From Octopus vulgaris (Eukaryota), in the NCBI GenBank assembly GCA_951406725.2, contig OX597823.1, positions 63,736,001 to 63,800,000 on the forward strand: a DNA stretch of 64,000 nucleotides. Reading direction: 5' to 3'. The notes under the pieces were generated by a model. The model did no database searches. It was not told where the DNA came from and worked only from the letters and a program-made list of their open reading frames with translations. A program made the translations under genes and the position numbers. Positions 1,506-58,700 of this stretch are shown in pieces (position 1 is the first letter of the stretch; each line of letters opens with the position of its first letter).

Positions 1506-1564
<59 letters not shown>

Positions 1565-1603
1565 CACACACACACACACATATCACACAAATCATCACAT
1601 GTA

Positions 1604-2314
1604 CACAGACATGACAGAAGTAAATAGACACCCCATAAAACAGCGGTTTATGCTTATTCTAACCTGTAAGGGTCTATAATTTTTATTAATGGACATTTTT
1701 ATGTTTCAGGTTCTATATGTGATTGTTTAATCATGCCATGTACAAAAGAAGCCTTGGAACCATCTGAATTTCAAAGAGGCCGCATTGTGGGTTATTCTGA
1801 AGGTGAACATAGTCAGGGCAAAATCGCAGAAAACCTTGGGAACCTGCTTTCTACAGTTAATAGAGTGATTGTGCAATTTCACTAGAGAGAGGAAGGAGTC
1901 CACATCATCTCACCCAGATCAACCAGGGCCCTCTGACAGGATCCTTCTCTTTGTTAGGAGAAGCATGGAGGATAATCCTTATTGCAAAGCCTCTCACATA
2001 GCAGAACAAGTTGATGTCAGTCCCAGAACTACTGTAAGGTATCTCCACAAACTTGGTTACTATGGCAGAGCAGCAAGAAGGAAGCCACATCTTCAACCAG
2101 CCAACATCAAGCGGAGAAAAGATTGGGCCAGTGAGATGGTGGAGAGGTCACTAGCATCTTGGGATACTGTCATATTCTCTGATGAGTCTAGATTTGCTGT
2201 ACTTCCTGACAGTGGTCGAGTGTGGGTCTAGAGACTCTGTGATCAAGAATTTGATGTGGAAAGATTTTAAATAAATTTTAATGATTATAAGGGTGTCTAT
2301 TTAATTCTGTCATA

Positions 2315-2320
<6 letters not shown>
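1604..2320 (+). mobile_element. Internally deleted Tc1-like transposon
   Basis: TIRs CACAGACATGACAGAAGTAAATAGACACCC / GGGTGTCTATTTAATTCTGTCATATCTGTG with TA flanks. Transposase fragment: [10 protein letters not shown]...ARRKPHL...VIFSDESRF. Confidence 0.9.
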
Positions 2321-2360
<40 letters not shown>

Positions 2361-2888
2361 CACACACACATATATACACAAACATATATACATACGTATA
2401 TATTTATATACAAAGACACAAATATTTACAAATACACACACACACACACACACAAGCATTATCATTTAATGTCTGTGTTCAATGCTAGCATAGTTTGGAT
2501 AGTTTGACAGGACCCAAAGGGTTGAAGGAGAGCATCATGCTCCAATGTCTGCTTGGGCATGGTTTCTATAGCTTGATGCCTTTCCTAATGCCAACCCCAC
2601 CTTACATCATGCACTGAATGGTTTTTATGTGGCACCAGCACCTGTGAGGTTGCTATGCAGCTTGCAAAACAAAGACCTCCTTCAAATGAGTAGGGCTGCA
2701 GTAGAATACCTTTTCCTGGTTGTTGTTGTCATCACTGCCATTGTTATCATCATCATCATCACCTCTGTTTTCATCATAGGCCTGAGGCTATAGTAGAGGA
2801 CACCTGTCCAAGGTGCCATGCAGCGAGACTGAACCCAGAACCATGTGGTTGGGAAGCAAATTTCTTACTGCACAGCCAGGTTTGCACC

Positions 2889-2939
<51 letters not shown>

Positions 2940-3480
2940 GTGGTTGGCATTTTGAAAGGCATCCAGCAGTAAAAACCATGCCAAAACTAACCTTGCCTGT
3001 GCTTGTGCCATGTAAAATGCACACAGTCCACTCTACAGTGTGGTTGGTGTTAGGAAGGGCATCCAACCATAAAAACCATGCCAAAACAGACACAGTAGCC
3101 TGGTGTAGTCTTCTACCTGGCCAACTCCTATCAAACCATCCAATCCATGGATGGCGGATGTTAAATGATGATGATAATATATATATATAGAGAGTTTCAT
3201 TCAAACTCACTAATGTGAAGATGTGTATGGTGAACTGATTGGTTCAGGAATGCAATGTCTGTTTGTCTCACATAAATCGATGCAAGTGATGCTAAATGCT
3301 GCCTTATTAACAGTAACCATCCTAACACATAAATACCATCTATTTCTTCCTTTTTAGTTAAAGGGCAAATTTTTCAGCTGTGTACAAACTGGTTTCAAAA
3401 TACACATGACCAGATAAAATTTACTACGACAAGGAATAAACGTATGAGAAAGAAGAAAGAAAGAAAGAATGCAGATATAC

Positions 3481-3587
3481 CTGGTCACGCATTTCCTTAG
3501 CCTTTTCTGCTTTCTTTAGTTTCGTTGCATATTCTTGTGCATCTGGTAGACCCAGGTCAGCACTGATTTTTGTCAGAAACTTTAAAC
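3481..3587 (-). CDS. IFT88: IFT88 late coding exon (C-LKFLTKISADLGLPDAQEYATKLKKAEKAKEMRDQ)
   Basis: 107 bp with CAG/GT boundaries, phase 1-0. Matches the human C-terminal CLRFLVRLCTDLGLKDAQEYARKLKRLEKMKEIREQ. Confidence 0.92.
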
Positions 3588-4623
3588 CTGTAACAAAAGA
3601 GACAAAGAGAAAATATAACATATTCTTTTATTGGTTTCAGTCACTAAAAACACACATATATACATAGTTCATAGATGAGATCAAGCTATTCTCTGTATAG
3701 AATATACTTAGTAGTACTCAAGAGATTTAAACTTGAGCAGATATAGAAGCAAATGTCGGGATAAACAAATTAGACATCAATATATACAATATATTAAACA
3801 CATGAAATACAAAATATGTGTACGTATAAAAAGGTCAAATTAGACATCAATATATACAATATATTAAACACATGAAATACAATATGTGTATGTATGTATA
3901 CATATAAAAAGGTCTGACTTACACAAAATACAAATGAAATACAAAATTAAAAGGGTGGATGAAAAGTGTTACAAATCCAACAGCTGTTTCTGAGGGCTCA
4001 GTGGTCCATAAAAATGCTTGTAGATTGACTCCATCATAAGGTGACATGAGCCTCTGTCTTCTGGGAAGAGATTTGAGATGTTATAGGAAAGAAGTTCAAA
4101 GACAGAATGCATACTATTCCTCCACCCTTTTAATTCTCTATTTCATTTGTATTCAAGCACATTTTTTGTATTTCATGTATTTAATATACTGTATATATTG
4201 AACTGTCTAATTTGCTTATGCCCATATATATATATATATATATGATCATGCAATTAAGAAGTTCACTTTGGAACTATGTGATCCTGGGTTCATTCTAACT
4301 GTGTGGACCCTATCAGCTGAATTCTATCATAACTGTAAGTTGACCAACACCTGGTGAGTGAAGTGTGGTAGACAGAAAGAGATTCTTTTATTCTTTTACC
4401 TGTTTCAGTCATTTGACTGCGGTCATGCTGGAGCACTGCCTTAAAGGGTTTTTAGTCAAAAAAGTCAAGCCTAGGACTTATTCTTTGTAAGCCTAGTATT
4501 TATTCTATCAGTCACTTTTGTCAAACCACTAAGTTACAGGGACATAAAGACACCAACATCCATTGTCAAATGATGGTGGGGATACAAACACAGACACAAA
4601 GACACACACACATAAATAAATAA

Positions 4624-4680
<57 letters not shown>

Positions 4681-5166
4681 ATCCAAAACACGGAACAAGA
4701 ATGTAATGGACGACAATGAAAACATATGGACAGATGGACAATACAAAGACAGATGGAATATTCATGGCTTTCTATTCATCAGTCAAGCTTCCAATTATCA
4801 CTACAGTTTTGGTCTGTTACACTTGGGACTGTTCAAAATTGGTAGCCCCCAAAAATCTAAGCTAAGAGCATTAAATTTTTGGAAGAAAGTGGACGAATAT
4901 GTGCGACAACAAAGACAAAAAAAAAGGGAAAAATGGAGAAAATGTTACACAATTACAAATACAAACAACAGGTGTCTTTCGACTAAAAGGACAAGTTAAT
5001 TTAAGCCGGTGTGTGAAGTGGAAGCCTTATGGCAACAAATATAGATGAAAATTGGAGACAAGAAAACAAGGTGTTGTGCAAGAGGCAAGCACTGGCCAAG
5101 CACTGGTCACGTGGGAGGAAAAAAGAGAGGTAGGGAGCAGAGGGATTGAAGAATTAGGGAAGGAAC

Positions 5167-5206
<40 letters not shown>

Positions 5207-5544
5207 GAAAAAGAAAAGAGGAAAGAAAGAAGAAAGTTGTATAGAATTTAGATACATACTTACTTACAAGCTGATATATATATATAAAATAAATCCAATA
5301 CAAGGAAAAACAATTTTCTTTATAGGGGTGGAAAAATGTCCTATTTTCTACTGGTTTTTCAGTAAATACCCCATAGGGTAGAGAAAAACCTTTCACAAAC
5401 CAAAAGGGTATATATTCAATATAGAAAAATTAAAAGTAAATAAAGATTTATGATTGACATATTTTAAATATAATTTATTAACATAATATTATATTACAAT
5501 AAATATAATATAATATTAGGTTGTCCCAAAAGTTCGTAAACACT

Positions 5545-5644
5545 NNNNNNNNNNNNNNNNNNNNNNNNNNNNNNNNNNNNNNNNNNNNNNNNNNNNNNNN
5601 NNNNNNNNNNNNNNNNNNNNNNNNNNNNNNNNNNNNNNNNNNNN
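5545..5644. other. Assembly gap (100 N) inside IFT88
   Basis: Run of exactly 100 N, a typical unknown-size scaffold gap. Confidence 0.99.
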
Positions 5645-5756
5645 GGAACCATGCACATAACAAAATACAATAAAATGTATAAAATATAATATATAGATAT
5701 TTTGTTTTTGTAATTGATTTGCAAGGTTCTTGGTGTGAATTCATGGGTTGGAACAA

Positions 5757-6152
5757 ATCTTGTTGTGTCTTGGGAGGGTCATGATGCCAATAATAATAAA
5801 CACACACACAAGTTCAACATCACTTCATTACTGTTAGTCAATCAGTTAAATATCTAACCGACTAACTCATTGACCATTTGTTCAGTGTACTGGTTAAACA
5901 ATCAATCAGTTGCTTGTTTGTCAAAGTCCTCTTGTTTGCTATTCATGATAACATCAATGAAATGGAAAAGAGAGAGCAAGTCATTAATGAGGTTGTGAAA
6001 CTGATTGATTGCTTAACTAACACATAAAACAAACTATCGATAAGTTAGTTGCTTGGATATTAAACCAACTGACTCACAATAAAGAAGTGACGCTGAACCA
6101 GTGTGTGTGTTTATTATCATTGGTGTAATGTCCCTCCCAAGACACAATAAGA
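5757..6152. mobile_element. Fold-back element / MITE with ~155 bp diverged inverted arms
   Basis: ATCTTGTTGTGTCTTGGGAGGG...CAATCAATCAGTT is the reverse complement of AACTGATTGATTG...CCCTCCCAAGACACAATAAGAT. Confidence 0.8.
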
Positions 6153-6488
6153 TACACGGTACCACCAAAAGTGAACAGTAGCATTGTTAAAGGCATGAAA
6201 CTTTCATGATCTTTTGGATGATGACTGATGAAGAATTAGCTATGTCTTGTATGTGAATTTTCCATTTGTTGTAGTTCTTTTACTCTTTTACTTGTTTCAG
6301 TCATTTGACTGTGTCCATGCTGGAGCACTGCCGTTTAGTCTAGCAAATCGACCCCAGGACATATTTTTGTAAGCCTAGTACTTATTCTATCGGTCTCTTA
6401 TGCCAAACTGCTAAGTTGTGGGGACGTAAACACACCAGCATTGGTTGTCAAGCGATGTTGGGGGACAAACACAGACACACAAACATAT

Positions 6489-6532
<44 letters not shown>

Positions 6533-6692: not shown

Positions 6693-6736
<44 letters not shown>

Positions 6737-6738
<2 letters not shown>

Positions 6739-7180
6739 AGTGCCGGTGGCACATAAGAAAACCATCCGAACATGGCCGTAGCCAGTACCGCATCGACTGG
6801 CCTCCGTGCTGTGGGCACGTAACAAACACCATCCGATCGTGGCCGTTCGCCAGCCTCGTCTGACACCTGTGTCGGTGGCACATAAAAAACACCATCCGAG
6901 CGTGGTCGTCTGCCAGCCTCGTCTGGCACCTGTGTCGGTGGCACATAAAAAACACCATCCGAGCATGGCCGTTCGCCAGCCTCGTCTGGCACCTGTGTCG
7001 GTGGCACATAAAATCACCCACTACACACTCGGAGTGGTTGGCGTTAGGAAGGGCATCACGCTGTAGAAACACTGCCAGATCTAACTGGCCTGGTGCAGCC
7101 TTCGGGCTCCCCAGACCCCAGTTGAACCATCCAACCCATGCTAGCATGGAAAGTGAACGTTAAACGATGATGATGATGAT
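6737..7180 (+). mobile_element. SINE/RTE-like tail element with internal ~60 bp tandem repeats, ending in (GAT)n
   Basis: Three or more units of CACCATCCGAGCGTGGTCGTCTGCCAGCCTCGTCTGGCACCTGTGTCGGTGGCACATAAAAAA, then GTGGTTGGCGTTAGGAAGGGCATC...CCCATGCTAGCATGGAAAG...GATGATGAT. Relatives at 2990-3175, 42150-42355, 52600-52890 and 55045-55550(-). Confidence 0.7.
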
Positions 7181-7770: not shown

Positions 7771-7806
7771 GTTTCTGAAGAAGAGCTTTGCTCAAAACGT
7801 TATACC
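7771..7806 (+). ncRNA. Decayed hammerhead-like motif
   Basis: GTTT-CTGAAGA-A-GAGC(TTT)GCTC-AAAA-CGTTA. GAAA has become AAAA and stem I is damaged. Confidence 0.45.
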
Positions 7807-10911: not shown

Positions 10912-11072
10912 CTGCAGGATAATAAAAAAATTTCACATATATTTAAAAGATATGAATACATATCCAAATGTATGCAGTTGCACACTCATGATACAAATAT
11001 ATATATATATATATATATATGGAAAAAAAAGTCAAGATAGAAAATGCTAAAATGATTTTATAAAAAACATTT

Positions 11073-11108
11073 CAGTACCGGTTTCAGTCATTGAAGCATT
11101 TTCAACTG
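11073..11108 (-). ncRNA. Decayed or variant hammerhead-like motif (TTGAAAA core)
   Basis: Minus strand: CAG-TTGAAAA-(13 nt, poorly paired)-GAAA-CCGG-TA-CTG. Confidence 0.4.
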
Positions 11109-11416
11109 TAAGTATGCAAAACAATTAAATTTTGGAAAAATTAAAAGAAAAGTTTTTTAAAAGAATATTTGCATAGTGTTCAAATACAAGTGGCATTTTC
11201 CTTGTTTCTGCCTGTTTCTCTCTCTCTCTCTTGTTTACTCTTGTGGGTTCGAGGTCGTTGTGAATTCTTGGTAGAGGGGGAGGAAGAGGAGGAGAAGAAG
11301 AAGAATATGGGCATGACACGACAGTAGTATGTTGAATGGTCAACTGCCTTGAAAGTGACCCACTGTGAACGGTAGTAGTGATTGAATTCCTGAAACATCT
11401 CTTCTGAATGTTTTGC

Positions 11417-11449
<33 letters not shown>

Positions 11450-12619: not shown

Positions 12620-15075
12620 TATGAAAAGTGGCTGAAAGATTTAAGCATGAGGGTATAAAATTACCACAAGATGATATCATGAGATCACTAAGAAATTGAG
12701 AGATTCAAGTACCTAGGGATGCTGCAAGACAATAGGACAATTGAAGGAGTAATGAGAACATCTCCTAAGAGTACATGCAAAGGATAAGTAAGATGCTTGA
12801 AGCAAAATGAAATGGAGGGAATATTCTTGTCTACTCTAGGCACAAGGCCTGAAATTTTGGGGGAGGGGGCCAGTTGATTAGATTGATCCCAGTACGCAAC
12901 TAGTACTTAATTTATCGATCCCGAAAGGATGAAAGGCAAAGTCAACCTTGGTGGAATTTGAACTCAGAACATAAAGCCAGACAAAATACCTGCTAAGCAT
13001 TTCACCTGGTGTGCTAACGTTTCTTATTTCTTTATTGCCCACAAGGGGCTAAACATAGAGGGGACAAACAAGGACAAACAAAAGGATTAAGTCGATTACA
13101 TCAATCCCAGTGTGTAACTGATACTTAATTTATCGACCCCGAAAGGATGAAAGGCAAAGTCAACCTTGGCAGAATTTGAACTCAGAACGTAAAGACAGAC
13201 GAAACACCGCTAAGCATTTCGCCCGGCATGCTAACGTTTCTGCCAGCTCGCTGCCTTAAATTGAGAGAATATTATCAAAGCAATGAATGAATACACAGGC
13301 CATGTCTGGATTAAGCTATTTTACTCCGTTTTTAAAAAAAGACAAAGATAAAGCTACAGAAATTAGAACTAGGAAGCTGTTGACAATGTAACGCATTAAA
13401 AGTAATATTGGCAGACTCTACCTAGCATAAAAAAAAAAAAACACAGAAGACACCATAAATATTGTGATACTGGGTTTAGAAAAACTTTGTTGTATGTATG
13501 AATAAAAAATACCATTGGCAGCTAGAAATATCAAAATAAGCTACAGAAACAGTAGGAGACTTTGAGAACAGAAGGATTAATAACAAATAGCTAACAGAAT
13601 AAGGAAATTAGATGTGAAGAATGCTGGCAGTGACTGGAAGATAGAAAACTGAAACAAGAAAATGAATCATTAATTATAGCTGCTCAGGTGCAAGCCAGTC
13701 ATACAAATTTGGAAAAAGCAAAGTTTGATAAAACTCAGAGAGCAAATGCAAAATCTGAGGAAAAGGAGATGAAGAAATTTTTTTCACCAACTCTGGGTGA
13801 AAGCAGAAGGCTAGCACAAAAAAGTGTATAAGCACAGGTGTGAGTGTATTGGTAAAAGTGTGCAGTGGGATGTTAGCTGAGTGAGTGGATTTCAAGAGTA
13901 TGAACATGAGCCAGAGGGTATTATGGTAAGTAATAATTACAGGGTGAAGGCGCATGGCTTAGTGGTTAGAGCATTCGGCTCACGATCGTAAGGTTGTGAG
14001 TTCAATTCTCGGAGACGCATTGTATCCTTGAGCAAGATACTTTATTTCACGTTGCTCTAGCTGGCAAAAATAAGTAGTACCTGTATTTCAACAGGCCAGC
14101 CTTGTCACACCTTGTGTCACGCTGAATCTCCCTGAGAACTATGTTAAGAGTACACGTGTTTGTGGAGTGCTCAGCCACTTACACGTTAATTTCATGAGCA
14201 AGCTGTTCCATTGATCGTATCAGCTGGGACCCTCATCGCTGTAACCGACGGAGTGCTCCTACTACCTACCTAATAATTACAGGACTTAATGAGACTTCTC
14301 AATAAAGACTGACCATACAACTGAAGCAAGAAGATCAGACATCATTGAAAAAAAAAACAAAAAAGCAAGGAATGTAAGATCATAGGCATAGGAGTGGCTG
14401 TGTGGTAAGTAGCTTGCTTACAAACCACACGGTTCTGGGTTCAGTCCCACTGCATGGCACCTTGGGCAAGTGTCTTCTACTATAGCCTCGGGCCGACCAA
14501 AGCCTTGTGAATGGAATTGGTAGACGAAAACTGAAAGAAGCCCGTCGTATATATGTATGTATATATATGTGTGTGTGTATATGTTTGTGTGTCTGTGTTT
14601 GTCACCCTAATATTGCTTGACAACCGATGCTGGTGTGTTTACATCCCCGTAACTTAGCGGTTCGGCAAAAGAGACCGATAGAATAAGTACTAGGCTTACA
14701 AAGAATAAGTCCTGGGGTCGAGTTGCTTGACTAAAGGCAGTGCTCCAGCATGGCCACAGTCAAATGATTGAAACAAGTAAAAAAGTATAGACTTTGAAAT
14801 GCCACAGAGTGGATATTAAAGAGACTGAGAAACATCAGAACCTAGCCATAGAAATAAAGAGATTGTAGAAGACGAAGATGATAATTGTTCTTATGGTAAT
14901 TGGTCTATCTGGCAAAACACCCAAACCGCTACCCAAGAGATGGAATTATTGGAATTGAGATACAAAGTGTTGAGTTGCAGAAAAATATCATCTTTGTAAG
15001 AATCCTAAGAAAGATTCTTGAGATTTGAGGAGACCTGTTGTCACCAAACCTCAAGACAATCTCCCTAACTAAAGT
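12620..15075 (+). mobile_element. Fragmented RLE-type LINE (same family as 607-985), interrupted by SINE insertions
   Basis: Pieces FKYLGML (~12705), DFSIKTDHTTEARRSDII (~14293) and a 3' end nearly identical to 860-980 (14900-15075). Confidence 0.65.
14385..14785 (+). mobile_element. tRNA-derived CORE-like SINE with internal (TA)/(TG) microsatellite (dominant family)
   Basis: GGAGTGGCTGTGTGGTAAG (A box), GGTTCAGTCCC (B box), CCTTGGGCAAGTG core and AAGTAAAAGAG tail. Other copies: 6277-6694(-), 12060-12470(-), 27058-27462(+), 29215-29568(-), 37219-37618(+), 45066-45490(+), 46155-46886(-, interrupted), 56690-57460(-, interrupted), 63671-64000(+). Confidence 0.85.
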
Positions 15076-29823: not shown

Positions 29824-29943
<120 letters not shown>

Positions 29944-30105
29944 ATCGCCATATTAATATGGCATTCTTATAGATATAAGAATAATCGCTGCCATGGTCAG
30001 CTCCATGAGGCCACCGCCATCAAGATAGCTATTGATACACGATCTGTATCCATTATAACCTTCGAACAAGGGAGGTCAGCCGCTTCACACTGCCAGTCCG
30101 ACAGC

Positions 30106-30143
30106 TACAGACGCGTTTCGGGGTATTGCCCCTTGTCAATGTA
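30106..30143 (-). ncRNA. Hammerhead-like motif with variant core (TTGACAA)
   Basis: Minus strand: TACA-TTGACAA-GGGG(CAATA)CCCC-GAAA-CGCG-TC^TGTA. Stems perfect, two core substitutions. Confidence 0.65.
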
Positions 30144-30308
30144 ACGCAGTCAGACCCGCAGGTGTCGCCACTGACGTCTCTGTTCGAAGGCTTATATTTA
30201 CCTAGTTTCAGTGGAATACATCCACTTGTTTTCAATAATAGAAATATTAAAATTACTAAATCTCTATAAAAGAGATTATGGCAGCGTTTACTGGAAAAGC
30301 CTTTTTAA

Positions 30309-30354
<46 letters not shown>

Positions 30355-36735: not shown

Positions 36736-36778
36736 CCACCTGAAGATTGTCGATCAAGACAAGAAACGATTGTAGTGG
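36736..36778 (+). ncRNA. Minimal type I hammerhead ribozyme, intact core
   Basis: CCAC-CTGAAGA-TTGTC(GATCAA)GACAA-GAAA-C(GATT)G-TA^GTGG. Stems I and II pair perfectly; GUA cleavage triplet. Confidence 0.85.
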
Positions 36779-37378
36779 CGGTTTTTTTGACTATTTATTA
36801 AAATTTTATGTATTGATTAAGTCTTTCCTTGTTTGTTTTGCAAAATAGTGGTTTTGTCTCTAATAATATTTTATATATACATATATATATATATACATAC
36901 ATATACATATACATACATACATATATATACATATATATATATATCATCATCATCATCATTTAACGTCTGCTGGCATGAATTGGATAGTTTTGACCAGAAC
37001 TAGCAACCTGGAGCACTACACCAGACTCCAATCTGATTTGGCATGTTTTCTATGGCTGGATGCCCTTCTTTATGCCAGCCGCTTTACAGAGTGTGGTAGG
37101 TGCTTTTACATGGCACCACACGGGTGCTCTTATGTGACACTGCTTGCGTTCTTTTATGTGATGGCACATGGGCACTTTTACATGGCACTACCATGAGTGC
37201 TTTACACCACCAGCAGGAAGGTGTGGCTGTGTGGTAAGTAGCTTGCTTACCAACCACATGGTTCTGGGTTCAGTCCCACTGCATGGCATCTTGGGCAAGT
37301 GTCTTCTGCTATAGCCCCGGGCCGACCAATGCCTTGTGAGTGGATTTGGTAGACGGAAACTGAAAGAAGCCTGTCGTA

Positions 37379-40149: not shown

Positions 40150-42560
40150 ATACTGATATGAATATTATTAAGCTTCCAAAGAAATATTTGTTGTATTTCC
40201 ATAATATGTTTGTTGCTAAATACAATGGCCAGAAAATTATCTGATTTAATCAAGGGATCATACAATTAGATTGAAGTTAGTGAGTTAATAGGACTGTATA
40301 GCTTATGTTTACTTTGAAAGAGGTAATGCTCTTATCCTGATGATGGATTAATCATTTTGCAAAGGATGAAAGGTTTACATCATAGATATAGATGAAGTTT
40401 GTTAGCATATTCAAGGGGTTACATTCAAAGATCACAGTAAATATAAATTTAAACATTGTTAATTTCTTTGATTTAACTTTAGATTTAGGCATTGCTGCTA
40501 AATGTTGTTCTTGTAGTAAAACTAATAAGAAATTTTCATTCATTTGTATAAATTGCAAGCATATCCCAATAACCCTAAGAAAATGCTTTTCTGAGAAATG
40601 CTTTCTGACTCATACACTGTTTACTTCCCAGACATTTGTACATTACTGCATATGCTTTATATGCACTTTTGACAAGTTGTGGTGCAACTGAGCGCTGTAT
40701 ACAATAATTTCATTATATTTTAACACTTCAGCATTTAAACCAGCCATATTCAGCCCAAATATTCTATTTGATTTATGCCCGAACTAGCCTCTCAACCCTA
40801 CCCTATAATGTCATTCTGAAAATAAACAACCATATCGAAATTTTGAAGCTTGATTAATTCAAAACAATCCATAAATACAAGCATGTCTTTTACAGCCATG
40901 CCTTCCATTCCTTCTCTCTTGTGAGCTCACAGATGCTGGTGCCTTGTAAAAAGCATCCATTTCTGTACCATGTAAAAAGTACCATACTGGTGTCATGTAT
41001 AAAGTACCCATGTGAGTGCCTCGTAAAAAGCACTTGTACTAGTGCTACCTATGCAGGTATCCCATGTATGTAACAGCCATGTTGGTGCCACATAATAGCA
41101 CTAGTGCTGATACCATGCAAAAAGCACCCAGTGCATTCTGCAAAGTGGTTGGTGTCAGGAATGGCATCCAACCATTGAAACCCTGCCAAAACAGAGAATT
41201 GGAATTCGGTGCAGCTCTTTGGTTGGCAAGCCCCTGTCAAACTGTCCAACCCATGTCAGCATAGAAAATGGGCGTTAAATGATGATAATGTAAATGAATA
41301 AGTATTAAATTTGGCAGAGTAATATGAACGCCTAAGGGTTTATGATGTCTGTAAGTATAAATCCATCTTATTCTCAGATTAGGAATGCTTTAACAATGCA
41401 TTGTATTCTCAGATGAAGAATATTTTATATTTTAACAATACAATGATGCATTAAAAGACAATAGTCTTGAAAACTCTATACGTTGCACTGAGAATGACAT
41501 TGAGAATCATAAACACTGAAATGTGAAATAAAATATGGGGTTCACTCCTCTAAAGGTTAAATGTTCATTCTAATGTTGACAGGTCTTTCTTAAATTTTAT
41601 GAATAAACATTTCCTCCATTCGCAGATATCATAAGACTGTTATAGAAAAAGAAATAGCCTCAAAGTGAGCTACAGTTGCATGAAAATGTTCATTGCTTTA
41701 TAACTAGAATAAACAGAAGAAACTGTTCCTGTGTGAACATGCAAAACTCTTCTCTGAGTAATTGTTACAAAGACAATACTTGCCATGTCGATGGTGTTTT
41801 TTTAAGGTATTAATTTATTGAATTAGAATCAGTCTTGCAGAGGATAAGTACTACAAAAAGCTATATAAGGCTTACTGAAAATGTCTTTCAAAAATTCATG
41901 CAGTATATGGACGAGAACAGCTGCTTAAAGAAGTACTGAGCTCTAATTGTGAAGGGTACCTGTGGAGAGGGTAGACCCAGGAAGACGTGAGATAATGTGG
42001 TAAGAAAGGATCTTCGGACATGGGGCCTCACTGAGGAAATAACAAGGGACCGGGAGATGTGACAGTTTGCTGTACTTGATAAGATATGTCAAGCTAAATA
42101 CAATCACTGTCTTCCACACATACAGGATTGTCCTTTCAGGTGCTGGTGCCACTTTAAAAGTACTTGGGCTGATGGCACGTAAAAGACACCCAGCACACTT
42201 TAAGTGGTTGGCATTAGGAAGGGCATCCAGCTGTAGAAACCATACCACAATAGACAGTTGGAGTTTGGACTGCTTCCTGCTAGCCAGCTCCATGTCAAAC
42301 CATCCAATCCATGCCAGCATGGAAAGCAGACATTAAACAATGATGAGGATGATGATATATGTACACATTCAAATACTCAAAAAGATGCCTTACTACTTCT
42401 CTAACCAAATTTATCTAGAGTTTGAGGAATGATGATATGGAAAATTATAAGATGAATTGGTTTGTTAGGAACACACTTCACCTTACATTAATGGCTCCAG
42501 AATGTGTGATTTCTTTCTCTTGCAGAAATATATCATCCTAGTACAGATTTCAAATAAAAA
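40150..42560 (+). mobile_element. Highly decayed Penelope-like RT/GIY-YIG remnants interrupted by SINEs
   Basis: Fragments KITVNINLNIVNFFDLTLDL (~40430), KIWGSLL (~41530), SLKVSYSCMK (~41655) and KSYIRLTENVFQK (~41857). Confidence 0.5.
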
Positions 42561-43489: not shown

Positions 43490-44070
43490 GAATGCAACAG
43501 CTATGCTTACACAATAACAGAAGCAAAACTGTATTACTTTGGTTCCAAGAATAGATATCACAAAAAGTTGGTATGAACACCAACCTAAACCAAAAGTTGA
43601 AAGTAACAACATCCCTATCCTTTGGTCAGGACATTATAGTACACACTAATTACACAATTAATGCCAATTGCCAAAATATTGTCATTTAAGATACCAAACA
43701 TGAGAACTTCATATTTATAGATATTACAATATCATCTGACAAAATTATGATAAATTTGCCAAATATAAACTCTTTAATTTTTTAACATGTTTCAACTTTA
43801 AAGCTGCAATCATGCTGGAGCACCTTCATTGAAAAAATATGGATCGTTTCATGAATTTGTGTGTCATCCTTGTGCAGGTGAGAAATTGAAATAAGCAGGA
43901 TATGGCCCCCGAAGACAGAAAAAATATCAGTTGTGACAGGAGCTCTAGGGTTCATTAAAATGTCAGTGACTTTCTTGAAAGAATTTCCAGAAGAATCTAG
44001 AATATATAAAACCAAGAAATAAATATGAAACAATATGACTCACATTCTACATAAGTTCTTGTCCTTGTAA
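43490..44070 (+). mobile_element. Decayed RLE-type LINE 3' fragment
   Basis: WYEHQPKPKVESNNIPILW...KTEKISVVTGALGFIK. Confidence 0.6.
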
Positions 44071-52448: not shown

Positions 52449-55400
52449 ACATTTGTATTGTTTCTTATATACTAATTGCATCCATTAGTACCGGTGTTTC
52501 TCAATCAGAATCCACATGGCCCAGGGGATAGGGGTCCACATAAAATTTTGCTGTTAAAATTTATGTGCAATAAATTGATTATACCTCTACAATGCTTACC
52601 TTGGATCGTAGGGCGACCTGCTCTGCTTGAGGAGACCTATTGAGTCAAGTACATCAACATCAAAATCAAAATCAAATGGAAACTGTAGTTGTGATACCCA
52701 TGCCAGTGGCATGTAAAAAGCACCCATTACACTCACAGAGTGGTTGGCGTTAGGAAGGGCACCCAGCTGTAGAAACACTGCCAGATCAGACTGGAGCCTG
52801 GTGCAGCCTCCTGGCTTCCCAGACCCCGGTTGAACCATCCAACCTATGCTAGCATGGAAAACAGACGTTAAATGATGATGATGATGATGAATGCATGAAA
52901 TATTTTAACTAATTTTTTTTTATATTTCTAATAATATTTAAGTATAAAAATATAATCTTTTCTTTAATCCTTTACTTGTTTCAGTCTTTAGACAGATACC
53001 ATTCTTTGGCACCACCTTGAAGAATTTTTAGTTAAATATATCAACCCCAGTACTTCTTCTTCATCATCATCATCATCCTTTAATATCTGTTGTCCATGCT
53101 GGCATGAGTTGGATGGTGTGACCAGAGCTGGCAAGCTGGGGAGCTGCAGCAGACTCCAATCTGATTTGGCACGGGTTTTATGACTGGATGCCCTTCCTAA
53201 CGCCAACCACTTTACAGAGTGTGCTGGGTGTTTTTTTACATGACACCGCATGGCACTACATGGATGCTTTTACATGTTACCATATGAGTGCTTTTATGTG
53301 GCACTGCCAAGAGTGCTTTACACCCTCAGAAGGATCAGTCTTAATACTTTTGCTGCAGAGTAAGGGTCTTCTTATATTTTTAAAACCTCATACTTATTCT
53401 GTTGGTTACTTTTGCTGAATTGCTAAGTTACAAGGATGTAAACAAACCAGCACCAAATGTCAAGCAGTGTGAAGAGACATATACAGACACAAAGCACATA
53501 CACACACACACACATATATTATGCACACACACACATATATTATGCACACACACATATATATTATACACACACACACACATATTATTGACAAGCTTCTTTC
53601 AGTTTCTTATTTCTTTACTGCCACCAGGGGCTACACACAGAGGGGACAAACAAGGACAGACAAATGAATTAAGTTGATTATTTCGATCCCAGTGTGTAAC
53701 TGGTACTTATTTAATTGACCCTGAAAGGATGAAAGGCAAAGTTGACCTCAGCAGAATTTGAACTCAGAACGTAGCAGCAGATGAAATACCTATTTCTTTA
53801 CTACCCACAAGGGGCAAAGCACAGAGAAGACAAACAAGGACACACAAACGGATTAAGTCGATTACATCAACCCCAGTGCATAACTGGTACTTAATTTATC
53901 GACCCTGAAAGGATGAAAGGCAAAGTTGACCTCAGTGGAATTTGAACTCAGAACATAGTGGCAGACGAAATACGGGTACGCATTTCACCCGGCATGCTAA
54001 AGTTTCTGCTAGCTCGCCACTGAAACTTTCAGTTTCTGTCAACCAAATCTCCTCACAAATCTTTGGTTGTCATGAGGCTACGGTAGAAGATACTTGCCCA
54101 AGGTGCCACACAGAGCCACATGGTTGGGTAGCAAGCTTCTTACCACACAGCCTCCAAATGTTTGTTAGGGTCCAGTGAAGTGAAATAAGAGTCAAATGAG
54201 CCAATAGGCAAAAAAAATGTTTGAGAACCATTGACTTAGACAAAAACAGCCAAAGGATTTTTAAAAATTTTAACTGTTAACATCATATTTCATACATCAG
54301 CAGTCACATGTTGATTTGTTGGTGGCAGTCTCCTTCTGAAGTTTCTCACTTTGCTTGTCCCTCTCTCTCTCACTCTCCTTTCATATTCTGTTTTTCTCTT
54401 TCCTGCCCTCTTTCTTCACATAAACTCCATGGCCTAGATACGTCTTCCACCTCTGACTATTTTATTAGTCACTCCAGCTTTCACTCTATGTCAGACTTAC
54501 CATGTAAAAATGTCTTAAATTTGGTAACATATTTTTTTCTTTCCCTTGCCATTGTTAATTCTTTTGTTCTCTTTGATAAAGGATATCACTTGAATTGCTA
54601 GATGCTTTTCTGTTTCTTTCTTAGGAATATTTATTATCTTCCTTGTACAATTCTTTATTTTTTTTTTATTGATAATTCTATACTTTTACTTATTTGACTC
54701 CGTGTATTATTGGTTTGTCGCCTATTTACCTCGTAATCTTGTCTTATTTGTTTGATTTTTATTGCTGTGTGTGTGTATGTATATGTGTATGTATATGTGT
54801 GTGTGTGTGTATATCAAATAAAACAGTGGTATAAAAATATAGATTCAGAGAATCATATAGCAATTATTGGTTACAAAACAGCCATAGTCATATGGAAGTC
54901 ATATTGATAAATAAATCTATCTTCATCATTCACACAACCTTTGATGCCAATAAATTATCATTGTTCCTGTATGTGGTTTTTTTTATATCTACCATGGACT
55001 GCTCAAAACTTACAAACACCCAACACTTAGATCCTTGGATTTTCATCATCATCATCATCATCATCATTTAACGTCTGTTTTCCATGCTAGCATGGGTTGG
55101 ACGATTTTGACTGAGGTCTGGCAACCAGATGGCTGCACCAGGCTCCAGTCTTGATCTGGCAGAGTTTCTACAGCTGGATGCCCTTACTAATGCCAACCAC
55201 TCCAAGAGTGTAGTGGGTGCTTTTTACGTGCCACCTGCATGGGGGGCCAGTTAGGCGGTACTGGCAATGACCTCGCTCGAATCTTTTTACTCATGCCACC
55301 GGCACAGGTGCCAGTAAAGCGACGTTGGTATCGATCACACTTGAATGGTGCCCTTTTACGTTCCATGGATATGGAAGCCAGTTGGCTGCTCTGGCAACTA

Positions 55401-55702
55401 TCACGCTCAGATGGTGTTCTTGACACTCTACTAGCACAGACATAAGTGCCAGTAAGGCGATGCCGGTAACGATCATACTCGAATAGCCGCTCTGTCAACG
55501 ATCACACTCGTATGGTGCTCTTTGCACCCCGCTAGCACGGATGCCAGTCATCGAAATATATATACATACATATATATTTATATATATATATATAGATAGA
55601 TAGATAGATAGTTGGAATTTACAAAATGCAAGCCAAAAGATGAAGATGGGTGTGTAAACAACAAACAGATGTATTAGTTTAATGCTTGGGAAATGAGAAA
55701 GT

Positions 55703-55738
55703 CTTTTACGTTTCGAGCCTACACTCTTCAACAGAAAG
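55703..55738 (-). ncRNA. Hammerhead-like motif with variant core (CTGTTGA)
   Basis: Minus strand: CTTT-CTGTTGA-A-GAGT(GTAG)GCTC-GAAA-CG-TA^AAAG. Confidence 0.55.
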
Positions 55739-58700
55739 GAACACAGAAATAAGCAGATAGAGAAAATAAAATAAAATATAGATACATACACACACACACA
55801 CTTATAATTATACACACATAAGCATCCATTAATTTTGAGTCCTTTTTGTTAGGACTGTTGTACTTTTGTGAATTTTTGTGTACTTATCATGTCTCATCCT
55901 TTTGTAGTGTCATCACAACACCATTTCTTGGAGTAATCTTGCTGATAATATGTTGAAATTGTTTCAATCTTTGGTCAAGAGTTTACGAGGGGAGTGTGGT
56001 AATCATGTTTGTGGCTTTTCTTGTCCATTGTGAATTACCTGTTACCTGTGCTTACTTTTTCTTCTGTTTAATCATAACACCACAGTGATAGTTTGTTCAC
56101 ACATTTTTATTTCTCAGAAGCCATCATTTCTGCTCCTTTCATCTTCTTTTCCTCATTTCCTTTCTTATTTTTTCCTTCATTCTCTCTGACTTTTGTTCTC
56201 TCTCTCTCCTGTCCTCTGTTTCTAGCCTTCCTCATGATGTTCTGATTTCCTATAATTCATATTTTACTGCCTATGCATGCTTCTTTCTTTTTCTTCTTGG
56301 CTTTACTAACTACCTTTTCATCCTCTGCTTTTTCTCTTTTTTATGTCTTTGTTCAATTGCTAACATCCAGCAATCTTTGTTGACATTCTTGTCCAAAAAT
56401 TTTCACCGTTTTAGTAATCTTTGTCACTTTGTTCTGTATTCTAGTTATCTTAGCCACACAGACTAAATATTTTGCATGCCTTTCATAACATTTACACTTT
56501 TTAAATATGTTACATCTAATTTTGTTTTGCTCATTTTTACATGGTTGTTGTTGTCCTGTCTTGGTGTCCAACCCTGAAGCATTTGTTATAAATCTACTGG
56601 CACTCTGAAGAGAACAATCATGTTGATAATGTACTCAAACTGCCATGACCTTCAGTTAAAAGCTGAGTTGAACAGTGTAATATTCTTTTATTCTTTTACT
56701 TGTTTCAGTAATTTGACTGCAGCCATTCTGGAGTACTGCCTTAAAGGGTTTTTACTTGAAGAAATCGACCTCAGGACTTACTCTTTGTAAGCCTAATACT
56801 TATTCTATCAATCTCTTTAGCCAAACCGCCATGTTATGGGGATATAAACCCACTAACATTAGTTGTTAAGCGATGGTAGGGGTAACAAATGAACATAGAC
56901 ACACACACATAAATATATACATGTATATGACAGGCTTCTTTCAGTTTCCTATTTCCTTACTGCCCGCAAGGGCTACACACAGAAGGGACAAACAAAGGGA
57001 TTAAGTTGATTACATCAACCCCAGTGCATAACTGGTACTTAATTTATCGACCCTGAAAGGATGAAAGGCAAACTCGACCTCGGCGGAATTTGAACTCAGA
57101 ATGTAACGGCAGACGAAATACCTATTTCTTTATTACCCACAAGGGGCTAAACAAGGACAGACATAGGCATTAAGTCGATTACATCGACCCCAGTGTGTAA
57201 CTGGTACTTAATTTATCAACCTTGAAAGGATGAAAGGCAAAGTCGACCTCGGTGGAATTTGAACTCAGAACGTAATGGCAGACGAAATACCACTAAGCAT
57301 TTTGCCTGGTGTGCTAACGTTTCTGCCAGCTCGCCACCTTTTCAGTTTCTGTCTACCAAGTCTACTCACAAGGCTTTGGTCAGCCTGAGGCTATTGTAGA
57401 AGACTTGCCCAAGATACCACGCAGTGGGATTGAGCCTGGAACCATGTGGTTGGGAAGCAAATCCCTGTATGTGTGTTTCTTTGTCCTGCGCATTTTATTT
57501 ATCTTGTTATCAGTGTTTAATCCTTCTTCTTTACTTGTTTTACATTATGTTTAACATTACTTTTCTGGTTGTGGAAGTACTAAAGAACTGTGTGGTATGG
57601 GGGTGGGGGATGTATCTCACCTACATTGTGGGTCCTCTCATGAAGTTGATTCTTTTCAAATGGAGTATATCTGTGAGAGCCTTACTTGCCTAACCTCTGG
57701 CCTAAACCCAATGGCAAATTCCCTGAACAGCAAAAAAGCCCACAGTAGTTGTCCTTCAGCTCAAGTGACCTTCCTTGTTCCTGTCTTTCTGGCAAGACCC
57801 CTTGGCCAGTCACATGATGTCAATGACCATATACTTCATGCAAAGCCCACTTCCCCACAATCTGGATTTGTAATGTTCATTCATCTGATCAGTAGCATTT
57901 ATCACTGGAATGAGCAAAATAATTGTAACTGGGAATTAAAACAGTTGCAATCAAATTACTTTGCAAAATTGTTACATTCCTAAGAAATAGCTCTGTGCCA
58001 TGAATATAGTAAATAAAATAAAATAAAAATACCAGACTTTAAAAAAAACAAAACAATTATTAATATTATCTTCAGTAAATGAAGAAAATTTAAAAACTCT
58101 TTAATGAGTCAAGTGAATGTTAATCTACACATACATTTTTTTTTTTTTTTTTTTTTTGCTGTTTTTGTTTAGTTCTCTGATGCATAAAATTGTCTATTAA
58201 GTATTTCTGCTGTTAAATTATTGATTATTGATAACCTCAATGTTATGGTCATCTTAGTTTGTCATTTAGAGAATTAATAATTAATAATTAATCAATATAT
58301 TTTAATTTTTTTTCTTATTTTATTTTCTTATGCCATTTTTTTTTCAATTCTATAGGACTAATTTAAATTTCTCCATTAAAAGTTTGAATAAATTATGTTA
58401 GGAAGAAAAGAAAAACAGAAATCATAAAACAAATGAATTTTAGTGTTGTACAACAAAAACAAGAAACAAAACCAAGTCATCTTGAAAGAAAGTAGGTCTG
58501 TATTTGAATTCATGTTATATTTATTGTAAATATTATAAATAAATTGGTAAAACATCAGTGACAACAACAACAACAATTCTGTCATCAATGATACCAATAT
58601 CACTGCCATCACTAAATTATTTGAACTTCTTGGACAGCTTACTAACACTATGCGCAAACACATGCACACATGTGTATGAAGTCATGATGGAACTTCAAGA

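Follow-up and report, generated by a model that had tools for sequence, protein, structure and literature searches.

Three hammerhead-like motifs lie in the stretch of octopus DNA analysed here (64,000 nucleotides, hereafter the window), and none of them carries the core CUGANGA that standard descriptors require. Are such cores the remains of decayed ribozymes, or the normal state of the elements that bear them? The question has weight since position A6, which is replaced in one of the three, is treated as near-invariant. A preliminary description of the sequence had reported the cores UUGACAA, UUGAAAA and CUGUUGA and leaned towards natural variants. We confirm all three cores at the positions given, on the minus strand, and conclude that the variant cores are family states and not decay. 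Families 2 and 3 are associated with PLE coding sequence and family 1 with a tandem ORF-less unit.

Three hammerhead motifs in the window

The three motifs are type I hammerheads (Table 1). The majority sequence of each family has G12-A13-A14, A15.1-U16.1 and H17 arranged around a three-helix junction, a Watson–Crick 3:8 pair (U-A in families 1 and 2, C-G in family 3) and a palindromic stem III suited to a dimer (ACGCGU, ACCGGU and ACGU in families 1, 2 and 3, respectively). The canonical A6 is present in families 1 and 2 and absent as majority in family 3, where U6 takes its place.

Table 1 Features of the window, numbered from its first letter.
Feature	Position	Strand	Details
Family 1 hammerhead motif	30104–30145	−	Descriptor scan plus family pattern
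Family 1 stem I	30140–30145/30104–30109	−	6 bp
Family 1 core U3-U4-G5-A6-C7-A8-A9	30133–30139	−	
Family 1 stem II	30120–30132	−	CAAUA loop
Family 1 palindrome	30111–30116	−	ACGCGU
Family 1 C17	30110	−	Predicted cut between 30110 and 30109
ORF-less retrozyme-like unit of 362 bp, one near-complete copy	29940–30297	−	Flanked by (TA)n tracts
Tentative inverted remnant of the family 1 unit	30303–30314	+	12 nt, at the 5′ edge of the unit; read from the sequence
Family 2 hammerhead motif	11073–11108	−	Core UUGAAAA 11099–11105; palindrome ACCGGU 11077–11082; A17 at 11076
5′-truncated PLE 3′ end (family 2)	11020–11420	−	
Family 3 minimal hammerhead motif	55703–55738	−	Stem I CUUU/AAAG; palindrome ACGU; A17 at 55707
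Family 3 core C3-U4-G5-U6-U7-G8-A9	55728–55734	−	
Family 3 extra A before stem II	55727	−	Stem II GAGU/GCUC with GUAG loop
5′-truncated PLE 3′ end (family 3, very abundant)	55612–55775 (limits approximate)	−	RT plus C-terminal GIY-YIG, linker Cx4CxxC
Decayed canonical-core minimal hammerhead	7771–7805	+	Relative of family 3; core CUGAAGA, A in place of G12
Canonical-core hammerhead-like motif	36736–36780	+	Imperfect 8-nt palindrome
Partial U6 snRNA-like match	43833–43883	−	36.7 bits, below the 44-bit threshold
tRNA-like match	13950–14019	+	29.4 bits, threshold 29
Tandem array	53608–53973		184 bp
Tandem array	56986–57291		169 bp
Tandem array	6736–7013		63 bp

The window was scanned with a descriptor allowing up to two core mismatches, with 40 local shuffles as control. 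In its strict form the descriptor gave three matches compared with a shuffle mean of 0.325 (0.025 for the U3-A8 type): 30104–30145, 55703–55738 and one at 42491 on the plus strand that is probably due to chance. The motif at 11073–11108 was matched only with stem II relaxed, because this stem is broken in the window copy. An Rfam scan of the window gave no hammerhead family among the matches listed (150 of 220). Outside the three motifs, the 184- and 169-bp tandem arrays are related in sequence and resemble repeats of SINE type.

Variant cores are the majority state of each family

Family patterns were searched against the whole genome (2.8 Gb, 227 contigs); the reversed-pattern control of each of the three patterns gave no match. 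With the core left open at 3, 4, 7 and 8, the family 1 pattern matches the genome exactly at 316 sites. U3 and A8 are present in 100 of the 100 matches listed; at N7, 69 of these have C, 30 have A and 1 has U. Family 2 has 539 exact matches; among the 100 listed, 97 have U3, 99 have A8 and none combines C3 with G8. The preliminary description had noted that the change of C3 to U goes together with that of G8 to A, and U3-A8 is indeed the majority state of both families. For family 3, a search that left positions 3, 4, 6, 7 and 8 open to any base yielded 18,156 exact matches. Among the 100 listed, C3 is found in 99, U4 in 97, U6 in 96 and G8 in 96, and every base occurs at N7 (U 44, A 25, C 20, G 11); genome-wide, 173 of the 18,156 matches have the canonical CUGANGA.

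The consensus check proposed in the preliminary description thus returns CUGANGA for none of the three families. Stem II damage in the family 2 window copy, and CpG decay in many family copies, might have indicated copy-specific decay of canonical hammerheads; this explanation is refuted by the family counts, in which the variant core predominates for each of the three, and we regard it as wholly improbable.

Family 1 is a short tandem unit

The family 1 motif reads GUUACA / UUGACAA / GGGG-CAAUA-CCCC / GAA / ACGCGU / C17 / UGUAGC. Its stems are perfect, as described previously, except that stem I has 6 bp rather than the 4 bp quoted. Copies of the 362-bp unit that contains it are found on many contigs, the best full-length matches being 97–100% identical (40 of 2,014 candidates scored). 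The unit is repeated head to tail at a spacing of 362–364, in 9 arrays among the first 100 matches, and inverted 5′ pieces are present; in the genome search these appear as inverted short matches to positions 4–66 of the query. The tentative inverted remnant in the window lies at the point where the inverted pieces end in other copies, and is too short for certainty.

No coding frame was found in the 362-bp unit. Sequence between family 1 copies was considered as a possible coding element at two loci: that at L091 is an unrelated LINE (APE plus RT) and that at L092 a long TA tract, so that no family 1 ORF was found. The L091 LINE (1533–6503, minus strand) is itself a two-frame element with APE endonuclease and RT and a 1,140-codon open frame. 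The preliminary assignment of the variant hammerheads to PLE families stands for families 2 and 3; the motif at 30106–30143 belongs to an ORF-less retrozyme-like repeat and not to a coding PLE.

Folded as a predicted circle, the family 1 unit is 66% paired (z −9.5 compared with 100 block shuffles). Two subfamilies were folded, and a long extended helix I is kept in each. In the dimer the double hammerhead is the minimum-energy fold (−27.1 kcal/mol), whereas in the monomer the hammerhead (−3.8 kcal/mol) is beaten by an alternative fold (−10.9). Family 1, a tandem repeat whose short unit has no ORF and bears a type I hammerhead, fits a non-LTR retrozyme.

Families 2 and 3 are PLE 3′ ends

Stem II of the family 2 copy in the window reads UGCU...GACU compared with AGUC...GACU in the family. 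The family stem is perfect (AGUC/GACU), and the window copy has therefore decayed outside the core; the preliminary description gave the core correctly and did not mention this damage. Longer copies (loci L040 and L045) continue upstream, on the same strand, into a broken RT tail and a GIY-YIG remnant with a linker cysteine motif, which identifies the motif at 11073–11108 as part of a PLE 3′ end. The hammerhead dimer of a typical family 2 copy is near the predicted minimum (−15.1 versus −17.7).

One family 3 copy has an 826-codon frame with a Pfam RVT_1 match (E 1e-7), a DKG motif and, read by eye, GIY-YIG-like motifs on the same strand. A Cx4CxxC linker lies between RT and GIY-YIG. This linker is common to Neptune and Nematis, and the features of the frame point to one or other of these, as far as sequence can indicate. 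At locus L307, two family 3 motifs about 4.4 kb apart are placed around the frame. Of 16 long-ORF copies fetched, 14 have the downstream motif, all with U6.

The U6 majority was also examined in loci picked without regard to the core, by upstream DNA, by protein and by downstream flank. Upstream DNA led to 25 motif-bearing loci, 24 of them with U6 (at 5 of the 30 loci the motif was missing from its expected position); a protein query gave U6 in 19 of 20 loci (10 of 30 uncounted); and the downstream flank gave U6 in 10 of 12 loci with a full core (5 of 17 matches were without one). The predicted fold is less favourable than in the other families: in the dimer the hammerhead (−13.7 kcal/mol) is far from the minimum (−26.8), and U6 favours off-pathway pairing with the GAAAC strand. 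A loop 2 pseudoknot seen by eye was rejected because its candidate partner varies across subfamilies.

Constraint on the family 3 motif after A6U

A tree of 142 family 3 copies was built with the core and H17 left out and rooted at its midpoint; many of its branches are weakly supported. The states of N7 and H17 sort by clade (C or U7/A17, G7/U17, G7/A17, A7, C7, U7/A17 and U7/U17), and U6 is the majority in every clade. Among nine subfamily majorities, only N7 and H17 vary in the motif (2 of 36 columns) compared with 41 of 87 flank columns (Fisher p 5e-8, a value that overstates independence because the subfamilies are related). Many of the copies compared had been picked with stems and GAAA fixed and positions 3, 4, 6, 7, 8 and 17 free, and the invariance of the motif is therefore partly built in. 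A less biased check comes from the contigs of four public runs (four organism codes, 82% likeness), in which N7 takes three alternative letters and H17 one, and which also vary in stem II or its loop and at CpG sites; at the 5% level, positions 3–6 and 8 have no alternative letter. Taken together, the sequence comparisons show what appears to be continued constraint on the motif after A6U became fixed.

An older, more diverged family 3 group is mixed, with A6 in 5 of 13 copies, a proportion enriched by the A6-directed search. It may be counted in favour of hitchhiking, in which U6 would be deleterious and have spread along with a single prolific source element, selection on the motif having ceased; a single origin could indeed account for all copies. 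The subfamilies that arose after fixation nevertheless changed far more in the flank than in the motif, and the whole motif is retained in long-ORF copies; hitchhiking is in our judgement improbable.

Core classes across the genome

To place the three families among other hammerheads, 80 evenly spaced 10-kb stretches (800 kb) were scanned with one descriptor for twelve core classes. The 20 matches comprise 1 canonical, 5 U3-A8, 5 C4, 3 U6, 2 G3-C8, 2 C6 and 2 that are probably chance; two controls gave 1 match each. The ratio of 1 canonical core in 20 is rough, because the sample is small and the descriptor needs well-kept stems, and it bears out the earlier expectation that standard motif searches miss most of these hammerheads. 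Families with the canonical core also exist in the genome.

Three further variant families were recovered. A sister of family 3 with the U4C core CCGACGA (loci L114, L148, L165, L166 and L168) has 12,246 genome matches, with C4 in 72 of the 100 listed. A second U3-A8 family, with an AAUU palindrome (L131, L161 and L062), has 2,705 matches, and no C3-G8 sister was seen among the 100 listed. The G3-C8 family, core GUGAACA, has both letters in 82 of its 93 genome matches; it often occurs as short inverted pairs, as at L166:3063–3110 (plus strand) with its inverted partner, and no coding frame was seen nearby. The 3:8 states seen in all families are Watson–Crick pairs (C-G, U-A, G-C). Separately, a possible A6C family, with the core CUGCCGA and a long irregular stem II, was seen twice (L128:955–1010, plus strand, and L091, minus strand).

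A proposed role for the variant hammerheads

We favour, with some reserve, the reading that the motifs descend from the source elements of three families of retroelements in which variant cores are the norm, and that they would be likely to cut slowly, as paired copies, probably with the aid of a protein. The short palindrome would be too weak to form a stable stem III alone, so that it would serve to pair two copies carried by a tandem or two-repeat transcript. Cleavage after H17 would then release unit-length RNA; that of family 1 could become a circle and be a template for PLE enzymes. The U3-A8 swap would keep the 3:8 pair. U6 would lower the cleavage rate without abolishing it, as A6C does, and the slow cleavage would probably be aided by the element's protein. 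The three window copies are solo and thus probably inert.

Published results bear on this proposal from both sides. In the sections compared, PLE minimal hammerheads are reported to cleave weakly as dimers (PMC4209133), the anole PLE hammerhead to cleave only with its protein (PMC11167929), and natural A6C to have low but detectable activity (below 0.1 per minute, Mn2+ preferred; PMC3088659, PMC7151607). On the other side, the portion of the anole study used here reports that in vitro insertion did not require cleavage and that none of the RNA-seq reads ended at the cut site (PMC11167929), and in a full pairwise mutational scan the CUGA region was rescued only by the G:C swap (PMC9901934). The position of the family 3 hammerhead dimer, off the predicted minimum, also argues against slow catalysis.

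An alternative, which we rate as possible though clearly the weaker, is that the fold is kept as a PLE-protein binding or priming signal and that cutting has been lost, in families with U6 or C4 if not in all. A6 and U4 changes reduce activity in published assays, the two largest families counted (18,156 and 12,246 matches) carry precisely A6U and U4C, and the dispensability of anole PLE cleavage for insertion in vitro also fits this alternative. Constraint on the fold alone could also yield a similar pattern of variation; yet the positions that vary are those that catalysis tolerates (N7, and H17, which is never G in a subfamily majority), and every family keeps a Watson–Crick 3:8 pair, as the active fold needs.

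Slow cutting, as favoured above, may be taken a step further. It is possible, though less likely than not, that A6U and U4C, with more than 18,000 and more than 12,000 copies, are working, protein-gated slow variants under selection, and that the most prolific PLE lineages run on attenuated hammerheads; weak cutting would in that case be kept by selection because it suits retrotransposition. If this were true, then together with the U-A and G-C swaps at 3:8 it would make canonical cores a small minority, and the hammerhead core would have undergone a mutational scan by nature in this genome. Should U6 motifs cleave, the core rules would widen and ribozyme counts in such genomes would be far too low. 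The families also provide matched natural pairs (U6 versus A6, C4 versus U4) that bear on whether PLE hammerheads need cutting at all.

Comparison with known systems

U3-A8 is already known: about 1,300 matches occur in Schistosoma PLEs, with the UUGAAAA core in the alignment (Cervera and De la Pena 2014, PMC4209133), and several natural prokaryotic examples are described (Perreault et al. 2011, PMC3088659). Being published, it adds little alone. Relative to the literature searched, the fixed A6U in a large coding PLE family would be a new variant. That literature gave no natural A6U or G3-C8; it leaves out supplement file 1 of PMC4209133 and the leading survey of variant PLE hammerheads, by Lünse et al. 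(RNA Biology), in which either change may already be listed, so that absence from print is not established.

Families 2 and 3 most resemble the minimal hammerheads in the pseudo-LTRs of metazoan PLEs, including Schistosoma Cercyon (PMC4209133). In the parts of that study compared, these share the type I topology, the palindromic stem III and the short stem I, lie in the 3′ repeat of an element with RT and GIY-YIG, occur mostly as solo truncated copies, and have an extra base before stem II that matches family 3. Unlike the families described here, the alignment rows compared contain no U6, C4 or G3-C8 core, and the supplement rows searched include no cephalopod. The Poseidon PLE hammerhead of Anolis carolinensis (PMC11167929) is, in the sections used, likewise borne by a PLE; it needs the element's protein, and engineered C3G/G8C partly rescues it. 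It differs in having a canonical core, in belonging to a different PLE clade and in being bench-tested, whereas the families here are known from sequence.

Family 1 is closest to the metazoan non-LTR retrozymes (Cervera and De la Pena 2020, PMC7229834; bioRxiv 10.64898/2026.07.22.740005), with which, as far as the sections compared describe them, it shares a short ORF-less tandem unit (here 362 bp), a 6-bp stem I, a 4-bp stem II and a highly self-paired predicted circle. It differs from them in its U3-A8 core and in having, like PLEs, inverted 5′ pieces and (TA)n targets.

Outside metazoans, the passages compared on prokaryotic, phage and viroid hammerheads (Perreault et al. 2011, PMC3088659; Naghdi et al. 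2020, PMC7151607) contain natural U3-A8 covariation, a natural position-6 change (A6C in phage Bcep176, with low activity and a preference for Mn2+) and a viroid U4C. These variants are rare single examples, whereas U6 in family 3 is fixed in more than 18,000 copies.
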